Part shown: positions 4,782-37,074 of the stretch, piece after piece | How positions within the stretch are numbered: position 1 is the stretch's first letter | Layout: the number at the start of each line of letters is the position of its first letter | Origin: a virus | Lineage: Duplodnaviria > Caudoviricetes | Length of the DNA stretch: 64,000 nt | Strand: one strand, 5' to 3' | IMG/VR virus record: IMGVR_UViG_3300031088_000782 | Span: 245,535-309,534 of that record | Notes under the pieces: model-generated | The model's input: only the letters and a program-made list of their open reading frames with translations | What the model was told of the DNA's origin: nothing | The model's database searches: none | Translations under genes and position numbers: made by a program

Positions 4782-5990
4782 ATGGGCAAATTTCACATTA
4801 ATGACAAAGATGAAGTAAAACCATGTAAAGCAACTATCAAAAAATGTAAATTTGGAGATAAGAAACATTTTTCAACAATTCATGAAGCAGAACAAGAATT
4901 AGTAGAAAATTTTAACAATAAAACTATAAAAACTCTATCAAAGATCAAACCTGACACTTTATCTGCAAACATCAGTAAAAACTACTCTCATTTGTCAATA
5001 ATCTTCGACCACATGCACAACAGCGGCCACACAGGAAACGAACTTGAACAGTACTATTACAATTCCCCTGCTGGAAGGTTAGAACTTGAAAGAAGAACAG
5101 GAAAAGGGAATAACATAGACAAAACTTATATAAAAATAAAAGAAATAATTGACGATCCTGAATTCCAACCAATTGACACAAAAATTAACGAAAACAAACT
5201 TAATGAATCAATTCAAACAGGTTATGAAAGTTTTTCTGAAAAGTTTGGCGAAAAAGACAAAGAATTAGATTACGAATACAGCGATATTGATCCTAAAACA
5301 AATGAAATGAGACATGCTTTAGTGGAAGAATCTCACAAGTGGTATCTTAATCTTTCAACAGAACAGCAGGAAGCTATTTCCGAACTTACATCATCAGGAT
5401 TTGAAAAACTTCAATATGCTCATGGAATCAAAACAAATTCACCAGCAAATTTTATTTTTGACACAGACATAGATATAGATGAATTTTATGAAACTTATGA
5501 TGGAAATGATTTTAAAGAAGAACTCAATAGAAGATTCTCATCAATAGGAGATGAATACAAGAAAAATATTGATGAAGCTTTTAAACATACCCCCAAACTT
5601 GAAAAACCTATCATAACATACCGAGGAACAAGTTTAGAAGAAATCAAAGAAATAGCAGGATTCGATTCAGAAACAGATGACAAACAATTCACAGAAAAAA
5701 TGTTAAATGGAGAACTCGATAATCAGAATATTAGTGAAAAATCTAGATTAGCTAATTTACCTATTTCTTCAACAGTTTCAACAAACATTGCTAAAAGATT
5801 CGGTAAAGGAATATATTTAGAAATTAAACGTCACACATCAAGCAGTCCTGTATTGAACAGCGCATGGGGAAGCTACGAACAAGAATTTTTGACAAACCCG
5901 AACAGTAAATACAAAATAATCGAAGCAGTAGAAAGTCAAAATAAAAGAGACAAAGGATTGATCGTTCGAATAGAAGAAATAGCTAATTGA
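4782..5990 (+). CDS. R-S-E type ADP-ribosyltransferase (VIP2/Alt-like) with N-terminal His/Cys module
   Basis: ITYRGT, ISSTVS, SYEQEFL motifs; N-term FHIN..DEVKPCKATIKKCKFG...HFST..EA. Confidence 0.7.
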   Translation: MGKFHINDKDEVKPCKATIKKCKFGDKKHFSTIHEAEQELVENFNNKTIKTLSKIKPDTLSANISKNYSHLSIIFDHMHNSGHTGNELEQYYYNSPAGRLELERRTGKGNNIDKTYIKIKEIIDDPEFQPIDTKINENKLNESIQTGYESFSEKFGEKDKELDYEYSDIDPKTNEMRHALVEESHKWYLNLSTEQQEAISELTSSGFEKLQYAHGIKTNSPANFIFDTDIDIDEFYETYDGNDFKEELNRRFSSIGDEYKKNIDEAFKHTPKLEKPIITYRGTSLEEIKEIAGFDSETDDKQFTEKMLNGELDNQNISEKSRLANLPISSTVSTNIAKRFGKGIYLEIKRHTSSSPVLNSAWGSYEQEFLTNPNSKYKIIEAVESQNKRDKGLIVRIEEIAN

Positions 5991-6038
5991 ATAAAAACTA
6001 TCCTAATTTTTAAAATTAAATAATTTTTTAGAATAATT

Positions 6039-6101
6039 AAAATAGAGCAGATAGACATTAGAAGAATAATAATCCTTCACAACGCTCATCTGCTCTATTT
6101 T
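6039..6101. terminator. 14-bp IR, 35-nt loop
   Basis: aaaatagagcagat/atctgctctatttt between convergent genes. Confidence 0.6.
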
Positions 6102-6125
6102 TAATGGTTTTTAGGGAATTTTTAA

Positions 6126-6253
6126 ATTCTTAAAACTCATTCTCTAACGGCATTCAAAAACGCCGCATAAAACCTTGCTTATTTCAGGTATAAAAAGGTT
6201 ATTTTTAAAGGGATTTTCTAAAAACCTTATTTTCCCTATCCCGGTACTAAAAA
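6126..6253 (+). repeat. Degenerate copy A of dispersed ~120-bp repeat
   Basis: GCATAAAACC core, then GATTTTC..AAAACC.T.TTTT...TATC.C.GTA.T.AAA aligned by eye with copy C. Confidence 0.6.
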
Positions 6254-6305
6254 CAGAAAAATTTCTCTCAAAATTCATTATGGAACTTTCAGCAAAATAA
6301 ATTCT

Positions 6306-7940
6306 TCAATTGTCCATTTCATTTTCAAGCATCAAAGGAAGCATCAGAACAGGATTGATCTCAGCGTCAAAAAGATCACTGTCCAGAGCATTATGCCATT
6401 CTTGGAAGCTCGGGAAAGTTTCAATAGATAAAATATACATCATATTAAAAAATTCAACACATGATTTAAACCATTCATCACTGTTATCTTTAGACAAAAT
6501 TTTAATAAAAATATCCAAACTATTATCAATATTGCTTGCCATGCTTCCAAAAACAACATTCTTCATATTTTCTTTACTCTGATAATTTAAAATAAAATCA
6601 TCTTTAAAGCTCATATCTTTTCTATTAGAGTAGTTAACATAAGAAAAGCTAATAGTTTTGTCATCATTTATCTTCTGTTTTTTAATACTGACGAAATTAT
6701 AAAGAAAAACAAGATTAAATACATTATAAAGATCCTCAGCAGAAACACAGTCCTTCTTTCTATATATCTCTTTCAGAAATCTCACAGCTAAAAAAGAATA
6801 ATTCTCATCATGAAAATAATCAAGATCGTGCTTTTTAAAATATTTATTAAACTTGTTATAGATCTCTTTCAATTCAGAAATAACCTTCTCTTTATTTAAA
6901 TCTGCATCAAAATACATCAAAGCCCACACAGCGTGCCTAGTCCAGTCAAAATGAGAACTGTAACTACCGCGCTCAAAGAAATCAAACGCAAACATCTCCT
7001 TACTAGAAAGATAAATACTCGAATCAACATACATATGTTCAACCATTTCAATAAAACTATCAAACATATTATTATCTTCTTTATTTTCGTATGCATCTAC
7101 ACGACTACGAAACCAAACAATCTCTTCATAAGCTTTCTCATTAAAACGAGAAACGGCTTTATCCAAATCAATACGAGAAAGTTCAGAAAATGATTCACAA
7201 AACTTTAACAAAAAATTTCGTGAATAATTACTATCTGCAGGCTTAAACCCATAACCAATATAACGACTCAAACGCTCAAGAGAAGAAGTAATAAAATAAA
7301 AGCCATCTGCATTTTCTTTTGAGAGATTTGGAACAAGAAGCCGATTATTCAAATGATCATAATAATCTTTGTAATAGACACAAGAATAAGATTTTTTCGA
7401 ATCTTCTACATAATCAACAGTAAAGTTTTCGCCAACAAAATCTTTGTCAATGATTCCTTTAACCAAAGCGAACTGAGTGACAGTATAATCAAAATCTGAA
7501 AGTATAGCCTCCGGAGATCCAAAATTTTTGCGCACCAAATCAATTGTCACATTATAAAAATAATCATAGAACCCAATAGAATTTTCCGTGTCATATTTTT
7601 TCTCAAAACCAGGTCTTTCACTAAATAATTTAACAGCATCATTGAAATCCTCTTCGCTCTCAAAGAAAACATCAATATCCTTAATAGCTCTACTTGTCAA
7701 ATAATCCTTAAAAACGCCTCCAGCAATAAAACCTTTATGCCCATCAAGAATGCTCTCAGCAAAAGCACTCACAAACTTCTGCAAATCTTCTTCTTTATCA
7801 TTATCTGTTGTAGCATTATCGGTGTCGGTGTTTCGTTCTACAAGAATTTCAGAGTTATCTTCAGAAATTACTGAAGTACTGAAAGAACAATTCGCATTCA
7901 CAACAACAGAATTCACTCCATAAGACAAGATAGCCTCCAC
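6306..7940 (-). CDS. Nucleotidyltransferase, poly(A) polymerase/CCA-adding head-like, with long C-terminal extension
   Basis: FIAGGVFKD, KDIDVFF, TIDLV, ILSDFDYTVTQFA (GG...DxD and FDxT motifs). Confidence 0.65.
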   Translation of the reverse strand: MEAILSYGVNSVVVNANCSFSTSVISEDNSEILVERNTDTDNATTDNDKEEDLQKFVSAFAESILDGHKGFIAGGVFKDYLTSRAIKDIDVFFESEEDFNDAVKLFSERPGFEKKYDTENSIGFYDYFYNVTIDLVRKNFGSPEAILSDFDYTVTQFALVKGIIDKDFVGENFTVDYVEDSKKSYSCVYYKDYYDHLNNRLLVPNLSKENADGFYFITSSLERLSRYIGYGFKPADSNYSRNFLLKFCESFSELSRIDLDKAVSRFNEKAYEEIVWFRSRVDAYENKEDNNMFDSFIEMVEHMYVDSSIYLSSKEMFAFDFFERGSYSSHFDWTRHAVWALMYFDADLNKEKVISELKEIYNKFNKYFKKHDLDYFHDENYSFLAVRFLKEIYRKKDCVSAEDLYNVFNLVFLYNFVSIKKQKINDDKTISFSYVNYSNRKDMSFKDDFILNYQSKENMKNVVFGSMASNIDNSLDIFIKILSKDNSDEWFKSCVEFFNMMYILSIETFPSFQEWHNALDSDLFDAEINPVLMLPLMLENEMDN

Positions 7941-8090
7941 AATTTCTAAAAATATCTCACAAAAACTTATACAAAAACAATCCTATCATAGAACACAATC
8001 AAAGTCAATGACAGTATTCCCAACTTAATCATTTATCCTTTTGATTGTATTCTTGAACAAACTATCATTTCAACAAATAATAAAAATAGA

Positions 8091-8134
8091 AAAGTCCATA
8101 AGGTATATTATTCGTTATATACCTTATGGACTTT
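8091..8134. terminator. 18-bp IR
   Basis: Downstream of pilT-like gene. Confidence 0.75.
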
Positions 8135-8150
8135 ATTTTTCTAAAAACAT

Positions 8151-9875
8151 TTAACCAAGTTTTTTCAACAATTCGTTAAAACGGATAATGCTTGTGGCTT
8201 GACGGCGAGCAGCGTCTACCTCACATCTATCCTCAGAAACAGCCCTCACCAGAGCATGTTCCATTGTAATCTCACGATCTATCTGATACTGTTTGATCCC
8301 CTCAATGTCAGCATGAAGGATCATTCGTGAAACTTCTTCATCAACATTAAGAATTTCACGAACAGCAAATCTTGACTCGCCATCCTTCGACTGCAATAGA
8401 ACCTGATTAGCAAAACCACGAACATTCTCTGACAATGAACCAAGAATTCGAATCTGATCATCTCCCTGATACAAAGAACGAATACGGTTTACAGTAGCCG
8501 GGGCTGAATTAGTGTGCATAGTCGAAATAGCCAAATGGCCTGTCTCAGCAGCTCTCAACAATTCATTAACCTCAGTCTGATTCCTAACCTCACCAATCAT
8601 TATAATGTCTGGTGCCTGACGCATAGCACTCGTCAAAGCGCCAGCAAAGGTTCGGGTATCTCTACCAACCTCACGTTGAGTAATCAATGCCTTACCCTCT
8701 GTTCCGTACATGAACTCAACAGGTCTCTCAACCGTAATAATCTTACAAGCCCTGTCCATCTGAATCTTATGTATCAAAGAAGCCAAAGTGCTCGATTTTC
8801 CAGTTCCCGTTGGCCCATTCATCATGACCAAACCATTCGGCAAATCACACCAATCAATCAAATCTTGCTCAACACCCAAATCTTCAGGCATAGGAATGAT
8901 GTTACTGATAATACGGAACACCATAGCAAAATCTCCACCATTAGCCTTCAACACAGACAAACGCAAACGTCTCCCCTGATACTTTCCCTTCTTTACGACA
9001 TAAGAAGCATCCAATTCAAGATCCGTAGCAAAATCAGATTGCGCAACATGTGAAGTAATATTTGTGAAAATTCTCTGCACAATAGTAGCAGGAATAATAC
9101 CAAAATCACTCACACGTCGAATGTCACCTAAAACAGTATAAGCAATATAATCATTCGGAGAAATATGAATATCCGAAGCCTTCAAATCAATTCCAAAACC
9201 AATAATCGCATCAATATCAAACCCAGAAAACTCATCCTCAAAATCATCCTCACTCAAATCATAAGCACCAGAGAAAGAATCCTCACTCTCATCCCCATTA
9301 AAAGCAGCATCTAAAATAGAATCAACATCATCCGAAACGGGATCATCACTATCATGCTCATCAATAGTATTCAAAACATTCTCAAACGAATCAAACTGAG
9401 CAGTGTCCTCAATACTATCATCTTCATCAATGTCTAAATCAGTATGAGAATCATAATCAGAATTTTCATAACCTTCATCAAACTCTTCATCAACAGAATC
9501 GTAAGAGCGAGAACGGTAATGTGAATCATAATCATCCTCATTGCCATTCACATCAACATAAAAATCAGGAATACTATGAGCAGATTCTTCGTATTCTCCA
9601 TGCCCCTCATCTTTGACAACATACACATCCTCAACACCAGGCAAAGCATCATCCTCGATCTCATAACCAATAAGATCTTCATTCGGATTACCCTCAATCA
9701 AATCACGAGAATGCTCAAAAGTTCCAGTAGACAAATTGCTCACATCAACATCAAGAGACATCAGATCAAAACTATCCTCATACTCTTCCTCCTCATCAGA
9801 ATCATCTAACAAAGGATTCACAACATCATCCTCATCGTCCAATAAAGGATTCGAGTCATCATTCAGATCATCCAT
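8151..9875 (-). CDS. pilT: PilT/PilU-like type IV pilus ATPase with ~215-aa acidic N-terminal extension
   Basis: ASDIHI, GPTGTGKSST, AMRQAPDIIMIGEVR, AETGHLAISTMHTNSA; RBS AGGAGAG upstream. Confidence 0.8.
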   Translation of the reverse strand: MDDLNDDSNPLLDDEDDVVNPLLDDSDEEEEYEDSFDLMSLDVDVSNLSTGTFEHSRDLIEGNPNEDLIGYEIEDDALPGVEDVYVVKDEGHGEYEESAHSIPDFYVDVNGNEDDYDSHYRSRSYDSVDEEFDEGYENSDYDSHTDLDIDEDDSIEDTAQFDSFENVLNTIDEHDSDDPVSDDVDSILDAAFNGDESEDSFSGAYDLSEDDFEDEFSGFDIDAIIGFGIDLKASDIHISPNDYIAYTVLGDIRRVSDFGIIPATIVQRIFTNITSHVAQSDFATDLELDASYVVKKGKYQGRRLRLSVLKANGGDFAMVFRIISNIIPMPEDLGVEQDLIDWCDLPNGLVMMNGPTGTGKSSTLASLIHKIQMDRACKIITVERPVEFMYGTEGKALITQREVGRDTRTFAGALTSAMRQAPDIIMIGEVRNQTEVNELLRAAETGHLAISTMHTNSAPATVNRIRSLYQGDDQIRILGSLSENVRGFANQVLLQSKDGESRFAVREILNVDEEVSRMILHADIEGIKQYQIDREITMEHALVRAVSEDRCEVDAARRQATSIIRFNELLKKLG

Positions 9876-12202
9876 AAATCTCTCTCCTTAAACACACCGT
9901 CTTCAGTAATAACAGGAACGATATCAATACGCCCCTCCTGCCATAAACCAATCTCTTTAGAAATCTGCTCCAACTTACGAGCAGGGCCAATATTTTTACA
10001 CACCCAAATAACTTTCTTATACAATCTATTATCAGCACGATAAGCTCTCAAAGTTTTCTCATAAGAACCACTCGCTTTATTGTTAATCTCAATCTCCACA
10101 GCAATACTCTCCGGTGTTCCATCCTCATTTCTTGGACGAACAACAACAAGGTCAGGAACATGGTAAGCCAAACGAATATTGAAAGGCGGCATCAAAGCCC
10201 ACATGTACTCATTCCCCAAAACTTGCTCAGGGCTTGGGCCGAAATTAACACCACCAGCACGCTCCCAAGAACGAAATTGTTTCTCAATCTCAGCCAACAA
10301 TTCAGGACGATACACATCAGATTTATCAAACATCTTAATCTTTCCAAAAGCAGATTGAATCTCCAGCTCACTCACAAGCTTCTCACCAAACACCATCTCC
10401 CCCTTACCATCAACACGATTACGCACAGGAAATTCAGGAAGATTAAGAACATTCACATTAGCACCCCACAAGTTAGCAGCAGTATTATTTACCGTAAACT
10501 GATGCGGAAACATACTAAAAGTCAACTTGCTTTCGGTCACACGAGGCAAATCAAAACCAGACAAAAGCAAACCAGCCTCAGTCAAAAACCAAATCGGACG
10601 AGCACCATAAATCTTCCTATCAATCACCAAACCAACACTACGCAACTTCTTCAACCTATTATAAGAAGTCTGCACACTACAAGAAAACATACGAGCCAAC
10701 TGCGCATCAGTAGCATAACGGAACATAGCCAAAAACTGCAAAGTCTCACGATCCTTAGCATTGAAAGAAGAACGAGAACCACGCTTCAAACCATCAGCAC
10801 CACGCAAAGCCTGCTCATACAAAACAACCCTCGCCTTACGATCAGCCTCACTCTCACCCAACCCATCAGAGTTAGAACGTAAAGAAGAAACCAAAGAATC
10901 ATCACTCAAAACAGAAGACTTACTACCGCCTAGATTTTTGAAAAACTCCAACTCCGCAACATTCACACGACCATCATTAGACAAATAACGATAACGCTCC
11001 CGAGAACCAGAACCACTCTTTTTCACACCCTTATCAACTGCAGACGAAGAACCTTTTGTAACAGCATCCGAATCTTTCGCAACACTTTCAGAACCTTCAG
11101 AAACATCACTAACAGAATCAGAAATAGAATCCACAACCGAATCTGAACTACCAGAAACTATACGACCAGAGTCATCAACAACAACCTCACGAACAGGCTT
11201 CCTCTTAAAATCAGAATCAATAGCACGAGGTCCACGCTTCCCCTGCTTCTTCTTTTTAGAAGCCGCACCACGCTTCTTCGAACGCTCACGAGAATCAACA
11301 ATAGTCTCATAAAAAGAACCCAAACGATCCGCATCCCCATCAGAAACCAAAGACTTAAACTCAGCACCAGACACAACAGAGTCACGAACAGACTCAACAG
11401 AATCAATAGAAACTTCATCTGTATTGCCTGACTCACTATTAGACAATCTTTCAACAGCCCCAACAGAATTAACTGCACCAGACACATAATCTTCATCCTC
11501 CTCATCAACAAAAGGATTAAAAGAATCAGAAACAGAATCACTTGCCGGAATACCAGAAGACTCTTTTACACTCTTTGTAGAAACATTATCAAAACCGACA
11601 AAAGTTTCAGAATCATCATCCTCGCTACCATCAACAAAAGATTCCCTATCTTGAATCCCACGAGAAATAGCACCTACATCAATAATAAAATCAGAAGAAC
11701 CAGAACTGGAATTTAAAACAGAATCATCATCCTCCCCCACAAATTCATCAAAGAATTCATCATCAAAAGAATCAAACGAATCATCAACTCCATCAGAAAA
11801 ATCTTCAACAGAATCGGTCAAATCAGAATCAGCAACAGAATTAAAGTCAACACTGGAACCCTCAGAAATTTCATCCTCCTCATCAACAAAAGGATTAAAG
11901 GAATCAGAATCAACACCTGAACTATTTGAGACAACAACATCTTTTATAGAATCACCAATAGAAGAATCATTTACTGAAACACTTGTAGAAGACTTTTCAA
12001 TAGAATCCTCAACCGGAGAAACATCATCAAATTTAATAGGACTAAACTTAAACTTCTTCACAGGAGAAACAGAACTACTATCAATAATAGAATCTTTATC
12101 ATAATTCTCAACATCACTAGTATCTGAAACGACAACAGATTCATCTACTATACTATCATCACTATCAGAAGAACCAAAATTAGGTTTTTTAAACTCAACC
12201 AT
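9863..12202 (-). CDS. Replication-relaxation (Replic_Relax) family protein with long Ser/Asp-rich N-terminus
   Basis: C-terminal wHTH (ETLQFLAMFRYAT..QLARMF...RLKKL...GLV...WFLTEAG), PHQF, PDLVV, IAVEIE; start chosen at MVEFKKPNF (ATG 12202). Confidence 0.7.
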   Translation of the reverse strand: MVEFKKPNFGSSDSDDSIVDESVVVSDTSDVENYDKDSIIDSSSVSPVKKFKFSPIKFDDVSPVEDSIEKSSTSVSVNDSSIGDSIKDVVVSNSSGVDSDSFNPFVDEEDEISEGSSVDFNSVADSDLTDSVEDFSDGVDDSFDSFDDEFFDEFVGEDDDSVLNSSSGSSDFIIDVGAISRGIQDRESFVDGSEDDDSETFVGFDNVSTKSVKESSGIPASDSVSDSFNPFVDEEDEDYVSGAVNSVGAVERLSNSESGNTDEVSIDSVESVRDSVVSGAEFKSLVSDGDADRLGSFYETIVDSRERSKKRGAASKKKKQGKRGPRAIDSDFKRKPVREVVVDDSGRIVSGSSDSVVDSISDSVSDVSEGSESVAKDSDAVTKGSSSAVDKGVKKSGSGSRERYRYLSNDGRVNVAELEFFKNLGGSKSSVLSDDSLVSSLRSNSDGLGESEADRKARVVLYEQALRGADGLKRGSRSSFNAKDRETLQFLAMFRYATDAQLARMFSCSVQTSYNRLKKLRSVGLVIDRKIYGARPIWFLTEAGLLLSGFDLPRVTESKLTFSMFPHQFTVNNTAANLWGANVNVLNLPEFPVRNRVDGKGEMVFGEKLVSELEIQSAFGKIKMFDKSDVYRPELLAEIEKQFRSWERAGGVNFGPSPEQVLGNEYMWALMPPFNIRLAYHVPDLVVVRPRNEDGTPESIAVEIEINNKASGSYEKTLRAYRADNRLYKKVIWVCKNIGPARKLEQISKEIGLWQEGRIDIVPVITEDGVFKERDLWMI
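11493..11899. repeat. Two identical 29-bp direct repeats (11493-11521, 11871-11899) encoding FNPFVDEED
   Basis: tcatcctcctcatcaacaaaaggattaaa read at both positions. Confidence 0.9.
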
Positions 12203-12565
12203 CAACAAACACCACCAAACAACATCAAAGGAACAATACATTACATATAAGCAAACATAACAAAACACTCATAATAAGACACAAATAAATATCAAGGACA
12301 AGAAAAAATTAAAAATAAGACCATTTAAAGAAGCTTTAAAAACCCTTACCTAAGCACAAAAAGATAAAAACAATCCCCTTTAACATAATAAAACGCCAAG
12401 AGAAACCCGCAAATAACGAAAAAGAAGAAAAAGTAACATGAAGTTACTATTAACAACAAACCATCCTCTACTGTTATTAGCTTTATATACATAGGTATAA
12501 AGAAAGCCTTCAAAAACCCCGTAGCCTAACCATGCCATAGGAACGTGGGTCGTGGTGTCACCCTT

Positions 12566-12817
12566 GTCCGCTACGCGGACGCAACTATTGTTCAAGCGCA
12601 GGGCGCTTTCTCAGATAGTTGCCCGAACGCCTGGGGGCGTCCGGAGGGTGCCAGTTTGTCGCTGACGCGCCAAACCTGATACGGCAATGCTGACGCATCA
12701 CCGTATCAGCCACTCGGTCGGGGAGTGGAGTGTTGTTTGTGAGTGCGTTGTTACTTACGTTCACAAACTTGCGGTTCGGGTTTGATAAATGTTGCAAAAG
12801 GGTTTGCTAAACATTTG
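12566..12817. other. Cluster of GC-rich hairpins in non-coding island
   Basis: GTCCGC-tac-GCGGAC (12566-80); CTGATACGG..ATGC-tgac-GCAT..CCGTATCAG (12676-12709); GTTTGTGA/TCACAAAC (12735-68); AAATGTT/AACATTT (~12788-12817). Confidence 0.7.
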
Positions 12818-13359
12818 AGAAAGGAGACAAGGTAGAAGGTCCGAGGAAAGAGAAGAGTTGAAGAAAGAACGTAGGTGTGCGCTACACTGTTAAGGTAGCG
12901 GTTCAAAAGTCAGGACAGGTCAGGGTCATGGGTGTGCGGAACACTACGCCACAACATAGGGTTAAGAAAAGGAATGGGTGTGCGCTACACAGCAAAGGCA
13001 AGGGTTGGGGGTTGTAAGTGTGCGGAACACTCCAACAGCGGTAGCGGAACGAATGGCGCGTCAGCGACAGGCGTGACATGAACGTGCCGCGTCAGCGGGA
13101 CGTTCAGCGAAAAGCGCGTCAGCGGTTTGAGTCGGCTTGGTGGGGAGGGGAAGTTGAGGAACGTGGGTGTGCGAAACACTGTGGTTAGGTCACGATGAAA
13201 ACGAAACGTGAGTGGAACGGAAAGCACCGCGTCAGCGGGGATTGTAGTGGAACGTGAGTGTAGTTGGAATGGGACTTGGTTGCAGTCACCGTGAAAAGCT
13301 GGGAACGGATCATGCTCAGGTTATAGTCACCGGGAATGGTTGAGGGGTGAGCGTCAGCG
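12660..13359. repeat. GCGTCAGC(G) motif: five + copies and two inverted copies
   Basis: + at 13058, 13089, 13116, 13229, 13351; inverted (GCTGACGC) at 12661 and 12689. Confidence 0.85.
12875..13179 (+). repeat. Five copies of GTGTGCG(CT/GA/AA)ACAC, iteron/operator-like
   Basis: At 12875, 12932, 12978, 13018, 13167; dyad GTGT-N5-ACAC. Confidence 0.85.
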
Positions 13360-13646
13360 AACTTGTGTTTGCGAAGTGTTGGTCAAGTGGTTTGTGAATG
13401 GTGGGTATGGTTAGTGTGGTGGTTGGGTTCGGGTGTTTGTTGAGTGTTCGTGTTGGGTGTGGGGAAAGTGTGAAAAAATTGTTGGGAAAATTTGTTGCTG
13501 AAATGTTAGGTTGTATTTCTTTTTTTTTATTTTTTATTTTTCTTTTTTGTCAAGGGTTTTGTGGGGTTGCTGTTTTTGGTGGTTTGGGGTAGACTGGTGT
13601 TGGTGCTTGTTTTTAGTTGGTCTATTTTTTGGAGTTGTTTGTTGTG

Positions 13647-13836: not shown

Positions 13837-13858
13837 TTTCTTATGAGAGGTTGTTTTT

Positions 13859-27497: not shown

Positions 27498-27512
27498 TTA
27501 ATTTTGACGAGC

Positions 27513-27562: not shown

Positions 27563-27570
27563 GATTTTTA

Positions 27571-27894: not shown

Positions 27895-27972
27895 AAGATT
27901 CTCTTTTCTGATTATTTCTTATTTAATTTAATATTATAATAATGGATTTTAATATTTAAATCAAATACGTTA

Positions 27973-28374
27973 TTAGATGTATTCCAAAGTTTTTTCATCC
28001 CAATTTTCAACAAAAGCCATAGGATTAAATGAAGCCCCTGTGATATTTTCTGTGTTTTCATGGCGAACATGTTTGAAGATTCTTTCAAAACCTTCTGGGG
28101 TGTAACCCCCGCTGTGAGAGATATAATCGACATTGAAATATTCAGCGGTTTTGTTCATGATTTCAATAGACAGCCTTTTTCCTTTATACCCGTCACGAAC
28201 CTCAATGTCATGGAGAGAAAGTTTGGCAACATTGTTTTTCACATTGTAGTCAGCTTTCATATAAGCAACATTGATTCCATCGACTGTCAGCCAAAAATGG
28301 AATTCATTAATCCATTCATACATGACATTCCGATGGTCTTCTTCAACAATGAGTTCAATCTTTTCTGTCTCCAT
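27973..28374 (-). CDS. GNAT-like acetyltransferase
   Basis: LHDIEVRDGYKGKRLSIEIM...HSGGYTPEG. Confidence 0.6.
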   Translation of the reverse strand: METEKIELIVEEDHRNVMYEWINEFHFWLTVDGINVAYMKADYNVKNNVAKLSLHDIEVRDGYKGKRLSIEIMNKTAEYFNVDYISHSGGYTPEGFERIFKHVRHENTENITGASFNPMAFVENWDEKTLEYI

Positions 28375-28524
28375 GTGTTCATTCTACTTGTTGTTCTGAG
28401 GTGCGTCAATAGGTTTTTCAACATTACGGAATTTTCCACTTGGTTTAAAGTTTTCAACGATTGAGTTGACACTATGTCTATGGCTGTGTAGGCTGTTTAT
28501 GTAAGCAAAAGTGTTGATTAAACA

Positions 28525-28866
28525 ATGATTTGGAGAATAGAACTGTCTGTAGATATGAGAAACGATAAGGTGAAGGATTTTTCTGAGTTTGCTTATGCTT
28601 GTACTCCAAGCATTGCTTCTTTGAGTGCAGTTAGTTTTGAGGATGGCACCTTTGCCACAGTGGTTAATCATTGGGAAAATTACTCTCCTGTTGAAGGTGA
28701 TGTTTTTATTGATTCAGATGGTGATGACATTTGGACAATGATTGACGGTAACTGGGTTATATTTGATCCGATGACATGTAAAATCAATGAAAGTGATGAA
28801 AGCTGGGAATCGCTTAATCTCAATTACGGACCAGTTCATCTGCTAACTGAATACATTATTTACTGA
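28525..28866 (+). CDS. hypothetical protein
   Basis: 113 aa; FIDSDGDDIW motif; IR after. Confidence 0.55.
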   Translation: MIWRIELSVDMRNDKVKDFSEFAYACTPSIASLSAVSFEDGTFATVVNHWENYSPVEGDVFIDSDGDDIWTMIDGNWVIFDPMTCKINESDESWESLNLNYGPVHLLTEYIIY

Positions 28867-28902
28867 TAACTGTGCTATCCATGATTCAGCAACTTTAATA
28901 TT

Positions 28903-28950
28903 AAAGCATCTGAGACAAAAGTGATTCAGGTTATTTGTCTCAGATGCTTT
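28903..28950. terminator. 17-bp IR
   Basis: aaagcatctgagacaaa/tttgtctcagatgcttt. Confidence 0.7.
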
Positions 28951-29040
28951 TCTTGTATGTTTATTTCTCAATGATGGATTTTTTGCGCGAGCAAATCATT
29001 CTTTCATCTTAGAAAATCTTTTAAAATACTGTTCAATTTG

Positions 29041-29084
29041 AAAATGCGCAACTGGCAAAAATTTTAACACCAGTTGCGCATTTT
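29041..29084. terminator. 15-bp IR
   Basis: aaaatgcgcaactgg/ccagttgcgcatttt. Confidence 0.7.
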
Positions 29085-29096
29085 AGTTATTGATTT

Positions 29097-29438
29097 TTAT
29101 TTGAGAATGGTTTTCATGTCGATGCTGGACTTAAATGCCAATTCGTCAGCCCATCCAACGGTTCCGAAATCTCCCCAACCTGAATGATTAAACATCACTT
29201 CAACCTTGATTTTTCCGCTTGGCTTGAGTTTGAAATTAGGAAACACAAAGAAGTAACCAGATTGTTCGCTGAGACTTTCGTTGGATTCGATGCGAACTTG
29301 TTCAACGATAAGTTTTTGCACCTTATTGACAAGTGCTTTCTTTTTGCGATTGATTGTTTTCGCCTCTTGCACAGTCATGTCATCAGTGACAACTAGTTCA
29401 TTGATGTTCTTCACGAAAGTATTCTTATTCATTGCCAT
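29097..29438 (-). CDS. hypothetical protein
   Basis: AAGGAG RBS; IR 29041 after. Confidence 0.6.
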   Translation of the reverse strand: MAMNKNTFVKNINELVVTDDMTVQEAKTINRKKKALVNKVQKLIVEQVRIESNESLSEQSGYFFVFPNFKLKPSGKIKVEVMFNHSGWGDFGTVGWADELAFKSSIDMKTILK

Positions 29439-29640
29439 TTTCTTTTCTCCTTGTTGTTTATCCGGCGTGGAAGCTACCCGGAAAATTTACTTATTCCTTA
29501 TTACATTTTTAATCTACTATACATTTTACTAAAAGTCAAGCAAATTCGTAAATATTTTTTAAAATTGACTAATTGACATTTGGAATTGTTTACTGTAACA
29601 TTATTAATGAATAGACATTTATATAAGGAGACGGTTAATA

Positions 29641-29955
29641 ATGTTTAATGAAAAGTTTGATGTGAAGAAGCTCAATGAGTCGGCTAGCGGTTTTATTGAA
29701 GGCTACAATCACAACAAAGAGAATTTGTATCATGGTAGTGGCGCATCTTTTGAAGAATACTCTAATGCCATAATTTCAGCAATCAATGATGCTGTTGATA
29801 AAGGAATGGATGAAGTCACTGTGAAGGCACCGAAAACGTTTGATGAAGCGTTCGAAAGGTTTTTTCGCGTCATGCTTCGTAGCAATGGAATTCAAATTGC
29901 GATGAATTCTCGAACTGGAAACATTTATTACTGGGGAGATAAGCTCCTGAAGTAG
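29641..29955 (+). CDS. hypothetical protein
   Basis: AAGGAG RBS; promoter 29573. Confidence 0.6.
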   Translation: MFNEKFDVKKLNESASGFIEGYNHNKENLYHGSGASFEEYSNAIISAINDAVDKGMDEVTVKAPKTFDEAFERFFRVMLRSNGIQIAMNSRTGNIYYWGDKLLK

Positions 29956-30043
29956 TTGATAAAAATTGATTGAACAATTGCTTAAATTTAATTCTTATGA
30001 TATACTTGAATTTGAATGCATTGTGAAAACAAACAATAAATAG

Positions 30044-30415
30044 GTGGATTTTATGATTGAAGTTTCTGAACAAGTGACTATGGTGACAGTGAATGGAAAA
30101 GAGTATCCAACTCGATTGTATAACGGTGTTCAAAGGTTTGTTCCGAATGAAGTTGTTCAATACATGAATGATACCGTTCTTGATGCTTTTATGGACAAGA
30201 AAGATACTCTGGGTGTCGATTTGAATTCTCTCGGAATCAAGTTGCTCAAAAGAGAACTTCCTTTGCAAGACTATATTGAATATTTGACAATGATTGGATA
30301 TAGCGTTTCTGGGTTCTGTGACGCGGTTTATAGTATTGTTGAACTTAACGACCATATTTTCCAAGGTGATACAAAAGACTGGTTCACTATTGAAAATCCG
30401 CTGTGGAATAATTGA
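30044..30415 (+). CDS. conserved phage-type hypothetical protein
   Basis: GVQRFVPNEVV...DLNSL...IGYSVSGFCD. Confidence 0.65.
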   Translation: MDFMIEVSEQVTMVTVNGKEYPTRLYNGVQRFVPNEVVQYMNDTVLDAFMDKKDTLGVDLNSLGIKLLKRELPLQDYIEYLTMIGYSVSGFCDAVYSIVELNDHIFQGDTKDWFTIENPLWNN

Positions 30416-30438
30416 GAATCTGTTAAGGAGAAGAAATA

Positions 30439-30648
30439 ATGAACCCTTTTGATAAAACTCGTCCGGGTTATGACCTTCATGAATTTTTTGCTGATGAATT
30501 CGCATGTGCCCTGTTGATGCCTGCTGAGGATATTTTAAGGTGTCGAAAGCATGGCATGACACCTGTGGAATTGTCTAAGCGTTATGATGTTCCTGTTGAT
30601 GCTGTCATTGCTTGGCTAGAACGTTTGGACAGGCATCCTCCTGAATAG
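30439..30648 (+). CDS. stand-alone ImmA/IrrE-like C-terminal fragment
   Basis: EFFADEFACALLMP...ELSKRYDVPVDAVIAWL; no HExxH; AAGGAG RBS. Confidence 0.6.
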   Translation: MNPFDKTRPGYDLHEFFADEFACALLMPAEDILRCRKHGMTPVELSKRYDVPVDAVIAWLERLDRHPPE

Positions 30649-30746
30649 TGAATAAGGAATATCTAGAAGATAATAGGTTAAGAAATATTTCAACAAACAG
30701 TAATGTTGAAATAAATTGAGAAAGTAAAGTAAAGGACGCTAAAAAT

Positions 30747-31091
30747 ATGAGTGATGACAGCAATGAATATGTTCCGACAGAGGAAGACCTTGTTAGAGGT
30801 TTCCGTGCTCCTTGGCACTCTAAACCATCAAAAGAAGAGAATGAATCTTTTGCTGAATACATGGCTCGATTGAGTATTGATTCTTTTGAGGCTGGAATCG
30901 CTGATGAAAAAGCAGCTCGACGTGGGGTAGCGAAAATCAAGGCCGATGCACTAAGAGATTGGGCAAAGTTTCAAGAAGATGTTCTAGAACAACATTCTTA
31001 TGCCGCTGACGAAGAAGATTATGAAGAAGTTCAAGCTTGGACAAACGCTGTTCGTATTTATGCTGATGAGGTTGAAAAAGGAAACAAATGA
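30747..31091 (+). CDS. hypothetical protein
   Basis: 114 aa, AAGGA RBS. Confidence 0.6.
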   Translation: MSDDSNEYVPTEEDLVRGFRAPWHSKPSKEENESFAEYMARLSIDSFEAGIADEKAARRGVAKIKADALRDWAKFQEDVLEQHSYAADEEDYEEVQAWTNAVRIYADEVEKGNK

Positions 31092-31135
31092 TTGAAACTA
31101 TTGATTTATTGCTATTCTTATGTTAAGGTGATTAT

Positions 31136-31630
31136 ATGTTAGATATTGATGAAATTTTAGAGAAACATAGAGACCAGAAATGGGGAATCTACCCTTATTC
31201 TGTGCATCTCGAAAACGTTGCCCAATTTGCTGAATACTTCAACAACCTTTATGGGAAAAAAGAGTTCGACCCGATTGTTGTTGACCTGGCATCTTACTCT
31301 CATGATTCGGTTGAGGACACTGATGTTGTTCCTGAAGAACTTGATGAACGGATTCGGGATGCTGTTGTGCTTGTATCCCGAAATGTTTCGCAAGGGGATC
31401 TGTCTTATCAAGAATATATTCAGATGATTGCTGATAGTGGAAATCGTTTGGCTATTCTTATCAAGTTGAGTGATGCTTTAGCGAATTATCTTCTGTCAGA
31501 GAAGAACGAGAGTTCTATCATTGTTCGCTATCAGAAGAGTCTCCCCGTTCTGTTTAAGGCTTACACTAATCAGGAGTGGGATTTCAATGGCGACTGGCGA
31601 CACGACTTGTCTTTGCTTCTCCCTGAATAA
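31136..31630 (+). CDS. HD-domain hydrolase, RelA/SpoT (Mesh1/SAH)-like
   Basis: H..Q....PYSVH, SHDSVEDT, IKLSDALAN. Confidence 0.75.
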   Translation: MLDIDEILEKHRDQKWGIYPYSVHLENVAQFAEYFNNLYGKKEFDPIVVDLASYSHDSVEDTDVVPEELDERIRDAVVLVSRNVSQGDLSYQEYIQMIADSGNRLAILIKLSDALANYLLSEKNESSIIVRYQKSLPVLFKAYTNQEWDFNGDWRHDLSLLLPE

Positions 31631-31845
31631 CAAAATTTGATTGCAAAAATATTTGACAATATTCCATGCTCCATCTAATAAAGTCTATCGTATCTTATTC
31701 AGACATGATGGGCTTTATTGTTTTTCGTGTAGATTGTAGAAAGTCTTTTGGTAAGTTTTTATTGACAAAACAATGGCTGTTCTGCTACCATTGAGGAAAG
31801 AAGCGATATACAAACGCAAAATGGCATGACAAGGACATTGAGAGG

Positions 31846-32124
31846 TTGAGCAATATGAATGAAAACAAGATGATGGACAACAAGGCAATTCTTGAAGTGT
31901 TCTATGTCATGGAGGGGCGCGGGATTGAGCCGGGAAGTTTTACGCGACATCTGATTGAAACGATTGCTAAGGCTGATGCCACTAACAAGGGCAAGCTGGC
32001 TCTCGTCTACCCTGAATATGTTGAGGTTGTTTCAGCCTACCAAAACAGTGCTGAACTGTATGATGAAATGGTTGGGCAAGTGTTTGAAAACATTGCTGAA
32101 AACTATGGCCGAAACTCTGACTGA
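31846..32124 (+). CDS. hypothetical protein, paralog of 26691 C-terminus
   Basis: EVFYVMEGRGIEPGSF...KADATNK...VVSAYQNS. Confidence 0.7.
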   Translation: MSNMNENKMMDNKAILEVFYVMEGRGIEPGSFTRHLIETIAKADATNKGKLALVYPEYVEVVSAYQNSAELYDEMVGQVFENIAENYGRNSD

Positions 32125-32177
32125 CAACATGAAAGTATGAATCGTCAGAATCGTTTGTGAGAGCAAAAACCGCTTGC

Positions 32178-32290
32178 TTCAATACGGTGGCTCTCAAAAT
32201 AGGGTTTTTCGAAAATCTTCTCCAAGACAGCCAAATCGCCACCTGAAAACACGGCATAAAACCTAATGTTTTCAGGTGGCGTTCTCATTT
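32178..32290 (-). repeat. Copy B of dispersed repeat; perfect 14-bp IR (32237-50/32268-81) around 17-bp core
   Basis: Flanks match reverse complement of copy C. Confidence 0.85.
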
Positions 32291-32471
32291 CAATTTTAAG
32301 CCTTTTTGAGAATGCCGATTTTTCTCTCATTTCGCACAGATTTTCGATGAGGAGTGTGTTACGCAATGCCCTCATCATCTACTGAAAACAACATATTATC
32401 TCATTCTTGTTGAACTTTTGATAAGCTGAAAAGTAATATAAATTAGAAAGATTCGAGAGAATGGAAAATCA

Positions 32472-33214
32472 ATGGAAAATTACGATAACTTTATGGATTT
32501 TCTTCTTAACGCTACTTTAATTGTTGGCGCAATCTGTGGTTTTGTACTAATTGTGGCTTCCTACTTCACTTGGGGGAATAACAGAGAAATAAAGAAGATT
32601 AATTCTGCCACAAAGAAACGTCATCCTAATCCAAATGGTCTTCACGTTTATAATGACAAAATTCGAACACTTGAAAGAAGAATAGAATTTAAACTTGAGA
32701 GAAAAGATGGAACAATTACAAATGAGATTCACGCTCTATATTCTGAAATGACTAAAAAGCTCTCTCTTGGAAAGTTGTTCACCATGATCGAATTGATTTT
32801 GAGACTATTGTTAAAAATTCAAAACCTATCAAAACCTTAGACCAAATGGCAAAAGATGCAAGAAATAGAATGATTGTACAAAACAGTTCATTAAAGATTT
32901 CTACTCTTGCTCTTGGGGGAATCTCGAATGATAATACACCTGCAAGAAAAACCATTCCTAACCTTCAACCAAAAATTAACGAAGTTGAGAAAAAACTTGA
33001 ATTAATCAACAAAGACTGGAAAGAATACGAAAAAGAGGTTGGGCACTATAACACTGACAAAGAAGTTAAAGAATTGTTCGTGAATCGTAGAGATAGTCTT
33101 TCTGAAGAGTTGTCAAATTTGAGGAAGCAAGAGCAAGATGAGCTTCAAATGATTGAGGAAGAGAAAATTCAGGAAGCGCATTTGCGAATGTTCAACAAAA
33201 TGTATAACTACTGA
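32472..33214 (+). CDS. TM + coiled-coil protein split by -1 frameshift near 32753-59 (ORFs 32472..32840 and 32846..33214)
   Basis: Frame of downstream ORF is open back to ~32756; fusion resembles 40533/46695 family. Confidence 0.55.
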
Positions 33215-33453
33215 TTTGTTTAAAATTTTTCAAACTGGTTAACTCTCTATTTCTTTTCTGCTGTTTTCGTTATTCTCCTCATAGAGCGATTTCATGCGAT
33301 TAGAACGTTAATTTCTCTCTATGTTGATAATCTATTTATGAACTTTTGGCGAATTTTTTGTTTGTAAATTTTTCGTAAAGCAATCATATAGATAAGTGAT
33401 AAGAGAGTTTAAAAAGTTTTGATGCAAATGTTTGACAGAATGGGAGACAGTAG

Positions 33454-34200
33454 ATGGGTGCTGTTGTGGAATGGTTCATATGGCTGACTATTGCCTTCAT
33501 CGGTATTGGAGTTATACAATTTGTTGTTCAATCTCGAAGAACATTGGTAATCCCTGTGAAATTAAAAAGTCGACAAAAGTTCAACAATTTTTCCCCTGAT
33601 GACTATTTGCTGAACGTCAATGAAGAACAGTTCAAAGTCATTGCCAGTATCGTTGATGAATCACATCCGAACAAGTATCGTAGTATGACTATCACATGGA
33701 ATTACACAACACCTTCAGGAAAAACCTCATACACTGATTCTAAAAAATATGATTTCTCTGAATTGACTGATTATGTGAAAAAGATTGGGCCTACGTTCGA
33801 TAAAGGAAAGAAACGAGTTAAAGCGTTGAATCGTTTCTATGATGAAAGAATTCGCAAGGGCAAAGAGGTTGATGATGGAGTTCCAAAAATTTATTGTTAT
33901 ATGATTTATGGTCCTGACCATAGAGGGTTGATTAAGGTAGGTTTCGCAAAGGGTAGTGCATTCAATCGCATCAAGAATCAAGTGAAAACAGCGGCTCATT
34001 TGAAAGTTGATTATGAGGTGTTGTTTATTATGCCAGCTATCTGTGTCAATGGCAAAGAGTTCAAAGACCATAAGGTGCATAAGATTTTGCGTAACTCTGG
34101 GGTTAGTAATCCGTTTGGGGAATGGTTCAGATGCTCCCCTGACATAGCGAAAAAAGCTGTTGAGTCAGCACAGATGAATTTTCCTAAAATTGCACTCTGA
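33454..34200 (+). CDS. T5orf172/GIY-YIG-like domain protein with N-terminal TM
   Basis: IYCY, IKVGFA...NRI, HKIL, GEWF; TM at residues ~5-25. Confidence 0.7.
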   Translation: MGAVVEWFIWLTIAFIGIGVIQFVVQSRRTLVIPVKLKSRQKFNNFSPDDYLLNVNEEQFKVIASIVDESHPNKYRSMTITWNYTTPSGKTSYTDSKKYDFSELTDYVKKIGPTFDKGKKRVKALNRFYDERIRKGKEVDDGVPKIYCYMIYGPDHRGLIKVGFAKGSAFNRIKNQVKTAAHLKVDYEVLFIMPAICVNGKEFKDHKVHKILRNSGVSNPFGEWFRCSPDIAKKAVESAQMNFPKIAL

Positions 34201-34242
34201 TAATTCCGATTCAATTTTCTCAATGGTTTTTGCTGAATTGCC

Positions 34243-34272
34243 TTGACAAATTTTGTTCAACTGTTATATAAT
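34243..34272 (+). promoter_or_regulatory. sigma70/SigA-type promoter
   Basis: TTGACA-18-TATAAT. Confidence 0.65.
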
Positions 34273-34312
34273 ATTTTTAATAGGTAATTGTGCAAAGTTT
34301 GAGAATTGAAAG

Positions 34313-34756
34313 GTGAATGGATTGAAGAAACCAAAGAGATTGAAGAACGATGATTATGTAAGTCCTGATGCTGATGATGGAACTATTGTTGAAAATCTGA
34401 ATTCGTTCAATGATGCTTTGGTGGGACGTAGGGTTGTTGCTGTGGAGCGAAGCAAGTCATCTGGTCGTATTTATCATTCTGGTTCTGTTACTGCTTTCAC
34501 TTTGGACGATGGTTCTCGTGTTGAGTTGAGTGATACTGATGATTGTTGCGCTTACACTCAAATGGAAGGAATCATTGAGAAGCTTCCTGACATTACTCAC
34601 GCTATTACTGGTGTGGTGTCATCGGATGGTTATCAGAATTGGCATATCATGGCTGATTTTGGTGAGATTATGGAACTGAAAGTCGGATGGTCTTCAGGTA
34701 ATCCATTCTATTATGGTTATGGGTTTGACATCAATGTTCGCTCTATCAGTGATTGA
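34313..34756 (+). CDS. conserved phage-type hypothetical protein
   Basis: DTDDCCAYT...GWSSGNPFYYGYGF. Confidence 0.65.
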   Translation: MNGLKKPKRLKNDDYVSPDADDGTIVENLNSFNDALVGRRVVAVERSKSSGRIYHSGSVTAFTLDDGSRVELSDTDDCCAYTQMEGIIEKLPDITHAITGVVSSDGYQNWHIMADFGEIMELKVGWSSGNPFYYGYGFDINVRSISD

Positions 34757-34820
34757 ATGCAATGTTGAAAAATTTTAAAAAGAACTGTTTTTAACAATTG
34801 TGCATAAATAGGTCAAACAG

Positions 34821-34855
34821 AATGCCCGGATCTTGTTTTATCAGATCCGGGCATT
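34821..34855. terminator. 13-bp IR between convergent genes
   Basis: aatgcccggatct/agatccgggcatt. Confidence 0.7.
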
Positions 34856-34887
34856 ATTTATGTTGTCATTTGTTCATCACAATGGTG

Positions 34888-35394
34888 TTAGATTCGCTTT
34901 TTCTTGATAACTTTGACCGCGAGCTTCTTTGCGCTTGATGAGCAATTCTTCTGGTAACGCATTACACTCTTTGGGCTTCCCATTTTCTGTGCCATGCAAT
35001 CCGCGAGTGCTTCTACTCCGCCGTATCCTTTGCGCCCAAACATTTTATTGGCTTTGTTGGACAGCTTGTAGAATCCGCTGGGGCTTGCGAATTGAAGCAT
35101 GTGTGAGCATTCGTGACGAGCGGCATACTTACGCATTGTCACACTCTTTGAGTTGAGTCGTTTACTGAATAGTAAAGTATTTCCCGAGGCGAGCGCGAGG
35201 ACACCTGAACGAAGATTTTGATTTGACTTGAATTTGTAGCCTTTTCCGCAATATTTTTTGACATAGGACTTGTAGGTGCTTGCGCTAACGGCTTCTGCTG
35301 GTGTGGGGGCTGTGATAGCACCACCGAAAGCAATGAAGAGAGCCATAATCGCAGCAATGAGATATTTGGTGCTCTTAGATACAGTTGTTTTCAT
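34888..35394 (-). CDS. secreted basic HExxH (zincin-like) protein
   Basis: Signal peptide ending TPAEA; ARHECSHMLQ; EALADCMA. Confidence 0.7.
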   Translation of the reverse strand: MKTTVSKSTKYLIAAIMALFIAFGGAITAPTPAEAVSASTYKSYVKKYCGKGYKFKSNQNLRSGVLALASGNTLLFSKRLNSKSVTMRKYAARHECSHMLQFASPSGFYKLSNKANKMFGRKGYGGVEALADCMAQKMGSPKSVMRYQKNCSSSAKKLAVKVIKKKRI

Positions 35395-35692
35395 TTGTTG
35401 TCTTCCTTAATGTTTGTGAATGATTTGTCTAAGTTTGACAGTGTTTCATCCTGTTTGAACGGGTTTCGTTGTGTTTCTATAAGGATTCTATCAGTGTTTT
35501 CAGCATATATCAAACGATTCACACAGTTTCACAAAAATTTCGGTAGTTTTTCAGTAGTTTTGAATATGAGTCAGTAGTTGCCTGTCAGATAGGATTTTTG
35601 GTCAAAAGTTGATGAATCTGCTTGATTAATTTGTTTGAGTGTTGTATTATTATAATAATAGAGAAATAGTTAAACAATGATTTGAGAAGGAT

Positions 35693-35905
35693 TTGATGAA
35701 AATGGCTCAGCGTTATTACGATTCGCATGATTTTACGAACAACACGAATGAGGTTTTGAGTGTGATGCTTGAACCCGGTGAAATTGTTGAGGTTCGTAGC
35801 GGTTCACGACCTCTTGATGTTTCTCGTTATTCTGGTGAAGAGTTTGGTTATGAGGTTGAGGTTAGCCCGAATGAATCAATGAGAACGATTAAGTTTGCCG
35901 ATTAA
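35693..35905 (+). CDS. hypothetical protein, paralog of 13647..13836
   Basis: LEPGEIVEVRSGSRPLDVSRY.G.EFGYEVEV. Confidence 0.7.
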   Translation: MMKMAQRYYDSHDFTNNTNEVLSVMLEPGEIVEVRSGSRPLDVSRYSGEEFGYEVEVSPNESMRTIKFAD

Positions 35906-35932
35906 TCCACAATCATTGACTATATTTGATTG

Positions 35933-35975
35933 ACGAAATTTCCCTAATACTTGTTGAATATTAGGGAAATTTCGT
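35933..35975. terminator. 17-bp IR
   Basis: acgaaatttccctaata/tattagggaaatttcgt. Confidence 0.7.
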
Positions 35976-36051
35976 TTATGGGTAGAAAAATTGATTATTC
36001 GCTGATATAGAAAAACGTTTTAAATCCGTTTTCTTTGTAGGGGTGTTTTTC

Positions 36052-37074
36052 GTGTCATCTTCTGTTCGTTATCATATTAATCCTGAAACTGGCAATGCAA
36101 ACTTGTGTCGTGCTGATTTTGGTAACTGCCCTTATGAGAAAAACAATTTTGAAGAACATTACGCAACAAAACAAGATGCACAGAAAGCTTATGAAAAGAG
36201 AATGGAAAACCCGATTAGTGAGAATAGCCGATTAATGAAAATTCGCGGAAAAGTTCACCAAACTATCATGAATAGATTAATGGATCATTCTGAATCTACT
36301 GCGTTTTTGTCAAAAGATAAAGAACATATTTCATCAGTTTATTTACGTAATAGAATAGATGATTTTTTGAGTTCATATTCTCCCAATGGTGTTGATGATT
36401 CGGGAAGATTGGACACTACTCCATTAACAATAAGGGCACCGAAAATTTCTTATACCGATGAAGTGATAGTTGGATTTGAGGGAGTGTATGAAGATATACG
36501 CAAAGACTATCCTGAATTATTAAATGACATGAACACTGCTGGCGAAAAATGGATAGACAATTGCTCATCAGATGAAGCATGGGCGGTTTACAAATATTCT
36601 TGCGATTCTACCGAATATGCTGAAACGTATTCGCAAAATGATAATGTTTTTGCTGAAAATTTGAACAATGCTTTGACTAAGGCTCCCAAGTTTTCTGAAC
36701 CTTTGACAGTGTTTTCTGGTTTATCGTACCAGGCAAGAGATTTGGTCATGGATCAGAACCCTACTGTTGGTTCGGTTATCAATATAGATAGAGTGCTTTC
36801 AACATCTGTGAATCCTGCACAAGCGAACGGTTTTATGCGCGGGGATTTTCTTTCTAATGGAGAAATTGTTGATGGTAAAAAAGTTGCTTTGAAGATTATT
36901 GCTGATAGGGGAGGCGTAATGAGTTCTGTCAGTCGCCATCAGGATGAGCTTGAAGTTTTACTGCCAAAATCGGATTATGAAGTTGTTGAGATAGAGCAGA
37001 ATAAAGAATTAATGTGGGGCGAAGGAAAAAGAGGGATGGTTGCTGACGTTATTCTCACTTTGCGCATGAAATGA
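36052..37074 (+). CDS. ADP-ribosyltransferase-like protein with N-terminal His/Cys module
   Basis: YHINPETG...CRADFGNCPY...HYAT; VFSG (Arg absent), LSTS, ELEVLLP. Confidence 0.65.
   Translation: MSSSVRYHINPETGNANLCRADFGNCPYEKNNFEEHYATKQDAQKAYEKRMENPISENSRLMKIRGKVHQTIMNRLMDHSESTAFLSKDKEHISSVYLRNRIDDFLSSYSPNGVDDSGRLDTTPLTIRAPKISYTDEVIVGFEGVYEDIRKDYPELLNDMNTAGEKWIDNCSSDEAWAVYKYSCDSTEYAETYSQNDNVFAENLNNALTKAPKFSEPLTVFSGLSYQARDLVMDQNPTVGSVINIDRVLSTSVNPAQANGFMRGDFLSNGEIVDGKKVALKIIADRGGVMSSVSRHQDELEVLLPKSDYEVVEIEQNKELMWGEGKRGMVADVILTLRMK

Follow-up and report, generated by a model that had tools for sequence, protein, structure and literature searches.

The window analysed here, the final 64 kb of a 309,534-base contig (G000, 35% GC), encodes two proteins with ADP-ribosyltransferase (ART) folds, ART A and protein B, which begin with a common domain of ~50 residues patterned H-x9/10-C-x6-C-x6/9-H. 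We find that this HCCH module is a real, large and uncatalogued domain family, that it is not specific to ARTs and that it tracks a family of elements bearing a transfer system. We consider it plausible, at a little under an even chance, that the module is a docking tag by which enzymes made in the donor are loaded on the transfer machine and delivered with the DNA. Two elements found via the module, G001 (325 kb, with direct terminal repeats) and G002 (345 kb), served for comparison, and four large records picked by VirD4 homology alone formed a further reference set.

The N-termini of ART A and protein B share the consensus [YF]-H-I-N-x7/8-C-x-A-x4-C-x6/9-H-[FY]-x-T-x2-[ED]-A, and their pairwise module score was equalled in 4 of 5000 shuffles. 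A hidden Markov model (HMM) built from two other elements only detected the module in ART A at E=3e-14 and in protein B at E=4e-16; the same model recovered all 11 copies in G000, with a best non-module match of 0.11. Full-length BLASTP of A against B was uninformative (best E=0.03). The common N-terminal H/C/C/H module that the original prediction had noticed on both genes is thus borne out. Profile searches of metagenomic clusters returned 5,052 at E<=1e-3 and 767 at 1e-10. Among 243 retrieved hits, which are the best-scoring ones and hence biased to canonical copies, the four H, C, C and H positions are ~100% conserved and the module is N-terminal in 236. This conservation predicts that the module probably binds Zn through these four residues.

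An AlphaFold2 (AF2) model of the module (pLDDT 85) consists of a beta-hairpin, the Cys loop, a short strand and a helix. The module has no sequence match in Pfam, PHROG, NCBIfam or the PDB, and a fold search with the model gave no convincing PDB match, the weak Kunitz-like and other hits being within background (best Z 4.2, rmsd 3.1 and 47 aligned residues, to Kunitz domains). The fold searches brought up neither the Ada Zn domain nor the hybrid-binding domain of RNase H1 and its L9 N-terminal counterpart, to which the module might have been likened. In BFVD, the best module matches were ten paralogs of one record, ‘Siphoviridae sp. ctHip2', whose protein lengths mostly coincide with those of the G001 module paralogs. 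A low-sensitivity tblastn search with one module query found none in PLSDB or INPHARED (50,697 phage records), and no description of the module or its carrier elements was found in the literature searched, mostly outside subscription papers. We also entertained the idea of an ordinary zinc finger for DNA or RNA, which would boost the affinity of enzymes for nucleic acid. Such a role would suit the HCCH pattern, the basic character of the linker that follows (K+R 20% vs 14%) and the many nucleic-acid-acting enzymes found behind the module, but the module itself is not basic, with a conserved surface that includes E-T-G and E-E-A-x-E, and it heads protein-modifying enzymes and peptidases too, making this explanation quite improbable.

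The module had been presented as a feature of two ARTs, a view that does not survive the census of its copies. The 11 copies in G000 comprise four on ARTs, one on a CCA-adding-type nucleotidyltransferase and six on proteins of no recognized type (the ART-fold gene at positions 1-976 of the G000 contig is in two pieces, each scanned separately). When the C-terminal partners of HMM-detected modules were listed, as had been proposed, 227 tails from the 243 hits fell into 123 unrelated groups; the module is not ART-specific. Recognizable cargo accounts for a minority of tails. It includes RNA ligase, Pnk/Zeta-like kinases, the CCA enzyme, HAD phosphatase, 2H phosphoesterase, DEDDh exonuclease, HD domains, ARTs, ART-PolyVal, Fic, M78 peptidase, YqaJ, MvaI/BcnI and TelA. 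Module proteins span 126–570 residues, most with one cargo domain, and a transmembrane-like segment was seen in just 1 of 221.

The combinations appear to be readily remade. The CCA enzyme carries the module in G000 and lacks it in G001, which indicates that the module is a detachable addition, and neither of the ART tails of A and B is present in G001 or G002. A slot upstream of the primase and VirD4 genes holds a module gene in three elements (G000:25802, G002:206906 and L097:4389), with a YqaJ tail in two of them and an unrelated tail in G000: this is cargo exchange at a fixed site.

Module copies number 11, 11 and 14 in G000, G001 and G002, and all three of these module-rich whole records carry VirB4, relaxase and VirD4 homologs. 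Reciprocally, each of the four large records chosen by VirD4 alone carries the module, in 11, 21, 9 and 1 copies, the count of 21 being partly doubled by inverted repeats. As to whether the module occurs mainly on elements without a transfer locus, a check named in the original prediction, we found the opposite, with module and transfer genes together in every record of both sets. A 300-kb NCBI contig has a module–YqaJ gene 4.4 kb from VirD4. Giant metagenomic contigs bear arrays of 8–9 module genes per 20 kb, and the longest contigs listed for VirD4 homologs have lengths of 727,572, 697,643 and 436,884, equal to those of module-bearing contigs; the link between VirD4 and module on metagenomic contigs is drawn from these equal lengths. 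Nine small records with distant coupling proteins, most of them fragments, had no module. The exception to this pattern is a ~180-residue module gene with a hydrophobic tail, single-copy where counted, on high-GC Actinomycetota chromosomes (4 metagenome-assembled genomes (MAGs), 8 contigs). The tail probably spans the membrane, and this chromosomal form is possibly a host-captured decoy or sensor. Its gene at L013:9986-10534 (also L012, L014, L015 and L075-L087) is without a TTAGAAA box, a promoter-like motif described below.

G000, G001 and G002 share a core of ~60 proteins that includes a VirD4-type coupling protein, VirB6-like proteins, VirB4, TcpE, FtsK, CpaE, a sigma-70-type factor, a T2SSE ATPase adjoining a Replic_Relax-like gene, and replication proteins; G000 also carries TadB/C-like and TadA-like genes. 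The VirD4-type protein of G000 (34346-36781) has TraG-D_C/TrwB_AAD matches. There was no match over the cut-off to four terminase families in three records, to one of these families in all seven, or to Phage_capsid in the seven, divergent versions being possible and circular records (two) occurring only in the wider set. From this gene content we read the carriers as conjugative megaplasmid-like elements that IMG/VR files as viruses, and they form an undescribed group of giant plasmids. Their hosts may be Gram-positive. The nearest plasmid matches of VirB4 and VirD4 are actinobacterial, if distant (34% and 27%); WhiB was looked for and not found. It is very improbable that the element is instead a jumbo phage and the module a capsid-targeting signal (CTS) like those of T4 or MuF. 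The IMG/VR listing, the name of the carrier ctHip2 and the precedent of T4 Alt, a packaged ART, speak for it; the terminase and Phage_capsid results, a conserved core made up of replication genes and VirD4/VirB4/VirB6/Tad, and the negative search of 50,697 phage records with one module query speak against it. T4 Alt, ModA and ModB and the MuF-fused ARTs are like protein A in their R-S-ExE arginine-type fold and in the host takeover on entry that is proposed for it, but they are packaged in the capsid via CTS or MuF, and the module matches no such family.

A closer comparison is with the Hodors, conjugative megaplasmids of >300 kb with VirB4, VirD4 and VirB6 that were first filed among huge phages (PMC12934698; Yuan et al. 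2026 preprint). The Hodor gene set includes Rep_3, sortases and a relaxase of MOBH-like type, and its description is without Tad, sigma factor, ART or zinc module (PMC12934698). The elements here differ in carrying Tad genes and a sigma factor of their own, and their relaxase is Replic_Relax-like.

Module genes also share an upstream signal. A TAGAAA box lies within ~110 nt (mostly 30–60 nt) upstream of 8 of the 9 scorable G000 module genes vs 22 of 179 others, the pattern having been picked on those same module genes. A box matrix built on G002 nevertheless tells the module genes of G000 apart (p=8e-5). Across metagenomic loci with GC contents of 33–62%, the box was found upstream of 34/57 module genes and of 29/162 other genes (p=1.2e-8), with 3/57 in the opposite-strand control. 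The metagenomic consensus is TTAGA(A/T)A without a conserved -35. Strong sigmaA-like sites show the reverse distribution (22 of 87 accessory genes vs 0 of 9 module genes). The matrix does not carry over to G001, which shows a GATATA-like box that was picked post hoc. The box also stands 5' of backbone genes, including tad genes and those for VirB6-like proteins. We infer an element-specific promoter class from these sequence patterns, perhaps read by the sigma-70-type factor (G000:54854-55837; L096:854-1837) that is conserved in all three records. An element-type promoter suggests that the proteins are made in an established host, and not first upon entry. Preloading in a donor would agree with this, and a resident role would do so equally.

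ART A scores over the curated cut-off for PF03496 (ADPrib_exo_Tox; 30.8 bits, E=2.6e-8) and matches phrog_3895 at E=4e-4. R281, S329/S333, E366 and E368, the catalytic residues of an R-S-E (CT/VIP2-like) ART, are invariant in its six homologs, most of which visibly retain the module. Because the R-S-ExE residues are kept, and given established ART chemistry, the sequence points to an arginine-type ART that is predicted to be active. ART domains resembling that of A sit elsewhere behind the delivery domains MuF, LXG and WXG100 (Atlas hits). Protein B, whose residues are numbered from the GTG at 36052 (a start backed by homolog P0004), is likewise an ART fold: its AF2 model (pLDDT 85, pTM 0.84) matches a Listeria ART, Tre1, Vis and C3-type ARTs in Foldseek at E~1e-8 (8za7, 6dre, 4xzj). 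Its first strand, however, reads T-V-[FY]-S-G-L in 12/12 homologs, with Ser in place of the Arg that binds NAD; E-x-E and the STS-like motif are retained. Protein B is therefore a conserved Arg-less ART variant, and the claim that both proteins are R-S-E-type ARTs stands as to their folds and as to A, and falls for B. We propose that B is a weak or altered enzyme, or a decoy that binds NAD or substrate.

Among the folds nearest to B are Tre1, a toxin used between bacteria, and an ART–ADP-ribosylglycohydrolase (ARH) pair of Listeria, and an ARH is encoded in all three elements (G000:205367-206317, 45 kb from A). These facts, with the polymorphic architecture of the module proteins, raise the possibility that the tagged proteins are antibacterial toxins sent out by a type IV secretion system (T4SS) or Tad to kill competitors, as X-Tfes with XVIPCD domains are. 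We judge this improbable. No recognizable cognate immunity gene adjoins A or B, the 3' neighbour of A being a convergent gene and that of B a 97-residue gene with its own sigmaA-like site, and the G000 ARH is 45 kb off; moreover, many cargoes are repair enzymes, and no cell-wall hydrolase was among the cargo families found. ARH occurs in G001 too, where no PF03496 ART was found.

In the docking-tag model, module genes would be transcribed from the element-type box, with their proteins probably made in the established donor. The module, as the mark of a rapidly changing group of soluble enzymes, would then dock its cargo on one shared element-encoded partner, most plausibly a VirD4/VirB4 part of the machine, and the cargo would cross with the DNA into the recipient, there to reprogram the cell or blunt its defences. 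ART A would ADP-ribosylate arginines on host proteins in the manner of T4 Alt, and the element's ARH could shield the donor or reverse the mark later. A fuller version of this model, which we hold only tentatively and think rather doubtful as a whole, is that uncultured conjugative elements of 300–740 kb, probably of Gram-positive hosts, rely on an undescribed export signal of zinc-knuckle type, by which they load a ‘split polyvalent' kit of some ten or more swappable enzymes on the T4SS and inject it into recipient cells, which are thereby taken over and have their defences disarmed. When the module, as an alignment of 80 rows with Zn added, was co-folded with the cytoplasmic domain of VirD4 (71 rows), the score was 0.00, which speaks neither for nor against such docking.

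Proteins cross with DNA in conjugation, and definable common signals are rare; none was described for Gram-positive conjugative elements in the literature searched. The nearest precedent is XVIPCD of the Xanthomonas X-T4SS effectors, likewise one conserved folded domain on unrelated enzymes with a VirD4-type coupling protein in the genome (PMC8740702). XVIPCD is C-terminal, ~120 residues long and Gln-rich in its tail, with proven binding to the VirD4 AAD, mostly accompanied by immunity genes and found on diderm chromosomes (PMC8740702; Oka et al. 2021). The module here, in contrast, is N-terminal, of ~50 residues and HCCH-patterned, and lies on a mobile element without an adjoining immunity gene, and its binding to a coupling protein is hypothetical. 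Polyvalent proteins, for which delivery with the DNA has been proposed, include ARTs (ART-PolyVal among them), a zincin-like peptidase, a nucleotidyltransferase and GNAT (PMC5512222; Iyer et al. 2017), so that their repertoire overlaps the cargo described here, also on elements with T4SS-like genes. They chain many domains in each large polypeptide, whereas here separate genes each have their own copy of the tag, and term searches of that paper (PMC5512222) found no HCCH domain. Membership in either group fails on defining features.

Several observations weigh against delivery by the module. The signals that direct proteins through conjugation machinery frequently lie at the C-terminus or inside the protein (PMC11288057). 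Threading might also be impeded by a folded metal site. Protein B lacks the catalytic Arg, many recognizable cargoes are repair or counter-defence enzymes, not toxins, and three R-S-E ARTs of G002 are without the module. In a few proteins the module is C-terminal, tandem or stand-alone, which suits a general binding domain. The box also precedes non-transfer, replication-type backbone genes and so does not single out export. One VirD4-bearing record has a single module copy, the MAGs with the chromosomal form have no match to this VirB4 or VirD4, and shared ancestry of one element family alone may account for the co-occurrence. The idea of a tag on translocated effectors, which the original prediction had advanced, accordingly gains from the unrelated enzymes that the module heads and from its co-occurrence with transfer genes, and loses from the position of A, the Arg-less B, the repair cargo and the chromosomal form.

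Much of this would follow if the module were an intracellular address or scaffold-binding domain that brings enzymes together in a single place inside the carrier cell, with no export. That site might be a focus of element replication or transcription, ribosomes or RNA, or a membrane adaptor, and the enzymes would serve RNA repair or counter host defence and rival phages. RNA ligase, Pnk-like kinases, the CCA enzyme, 2H and HD would be useful to a resident cell; the tandem, C-terminal and stand-alone copies, the hydrophobic-tailed chromosomal form with no transfer system, and a promoter box common to replication-type backbone genes fit as well. Such an address does not account for potentially harmful ARTs, nucleases and Fic sharing the tag, or for fast turnover between elements, and no known nucleic-acid-binding fold was matched; we regard it as somewhat unlikely, though a serious contender.

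If the fuller version of the docking-tag model is true, monoderm conjugation would have in the module a portable and well-defined signal for protein translocation. The 50-residue tag, readily detectable by HMM, opens a catalogue of thousands of mostly uncharacterized cargo domains, likely rich in enzymes of counter-defence and host takeover. Should the module merely localize proteins within cells, it would still be a large domain family absent from databases and a marker of an undescribed group of giant plasmids now listed as phages in virus databases.

Features of the window discussed in the text (window coordinates)
Feature	Position	Strand	Description
ART A	4782..5990	+	402 aa: module, linker, helical region, R-S-ExE ART domain (R281 at nt 5622)
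HCCH module of ART A	4782..4931	+	H5, C15, C22, H29; helix with A36
Protein B	36052..37074	+	340 aa from GTG 36052: module, helical region, ART fold
HCCH module of protein B	36052..36222	+	H8, C19, C26, H36
Sites of protein B	36715; 36799; 36946-36954		Ser in Arg position; STS; E-x-E
Context	378..4608	+	TcpE, VirB4-like AAA_10, RcpC/CpaB-like and CpaE/MinD-like genes; end of tad/tra operon
Intrinsic-terminator-like hairpin	4641..4678	+	15 pairs, T tail; closes tad/tra operon 5' of A
TAGAAA box	4733..4738	+	Element-type promoter-like motif upstream of ART A
Two TAGAAAA boxes	35983..36014 (at 35983, 36008)	+	Upstream of protein B gene
Context	8151..12268	-	T2SSE/VirB11-like ATPase and weak Replic_Relax relaxase-like gene; pair kept in two related elements

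One of the two ARTs had been placed inside the transfer locus, which holds in a positional sense only. A terminator separates A from the CpaE-like gene, and the slot it occupies beside the transfer genes holds unrelated genes in G001 and G002; the position of A is therefore no evidence for a transfer role. Past the relaxase-like gene, the region 12300-33400 has few long open reading frames, and the GC skew flips sharply near 12 kb; the region is a candidate origin of transfer (oriT) or origin with a leading region. At 37647-40377, a MoxR-like AAA ATPase gene adjoins a DUF2201 metallopeptidase-like gene, and in L057 and L065 the same pair is again close to module genes.

Further observations concern the comparison elements and the transfer proteins. 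At G002:233052-238064 (L047), the three tandem R-S-E ARTs have in common a different, Cys-containing and Arg-rich leader, found on no other protein searched; the triplet is directly upstream of an ADP-ribosylglycohydrolase gene and inside a module-gene cluster. G001 encodes its own SecA and SecY straight after the CpaE-like region (294509-297990; L033:14509-17990). The TadA-like ATPase of G000 (239796-243005; L006:9797-13006) contains a homing-endonuclease insertion, and many VirD4 homologs of this family are 1,060–1,400 residues long, some with LAGLIDADG hits, which suggests inteins.

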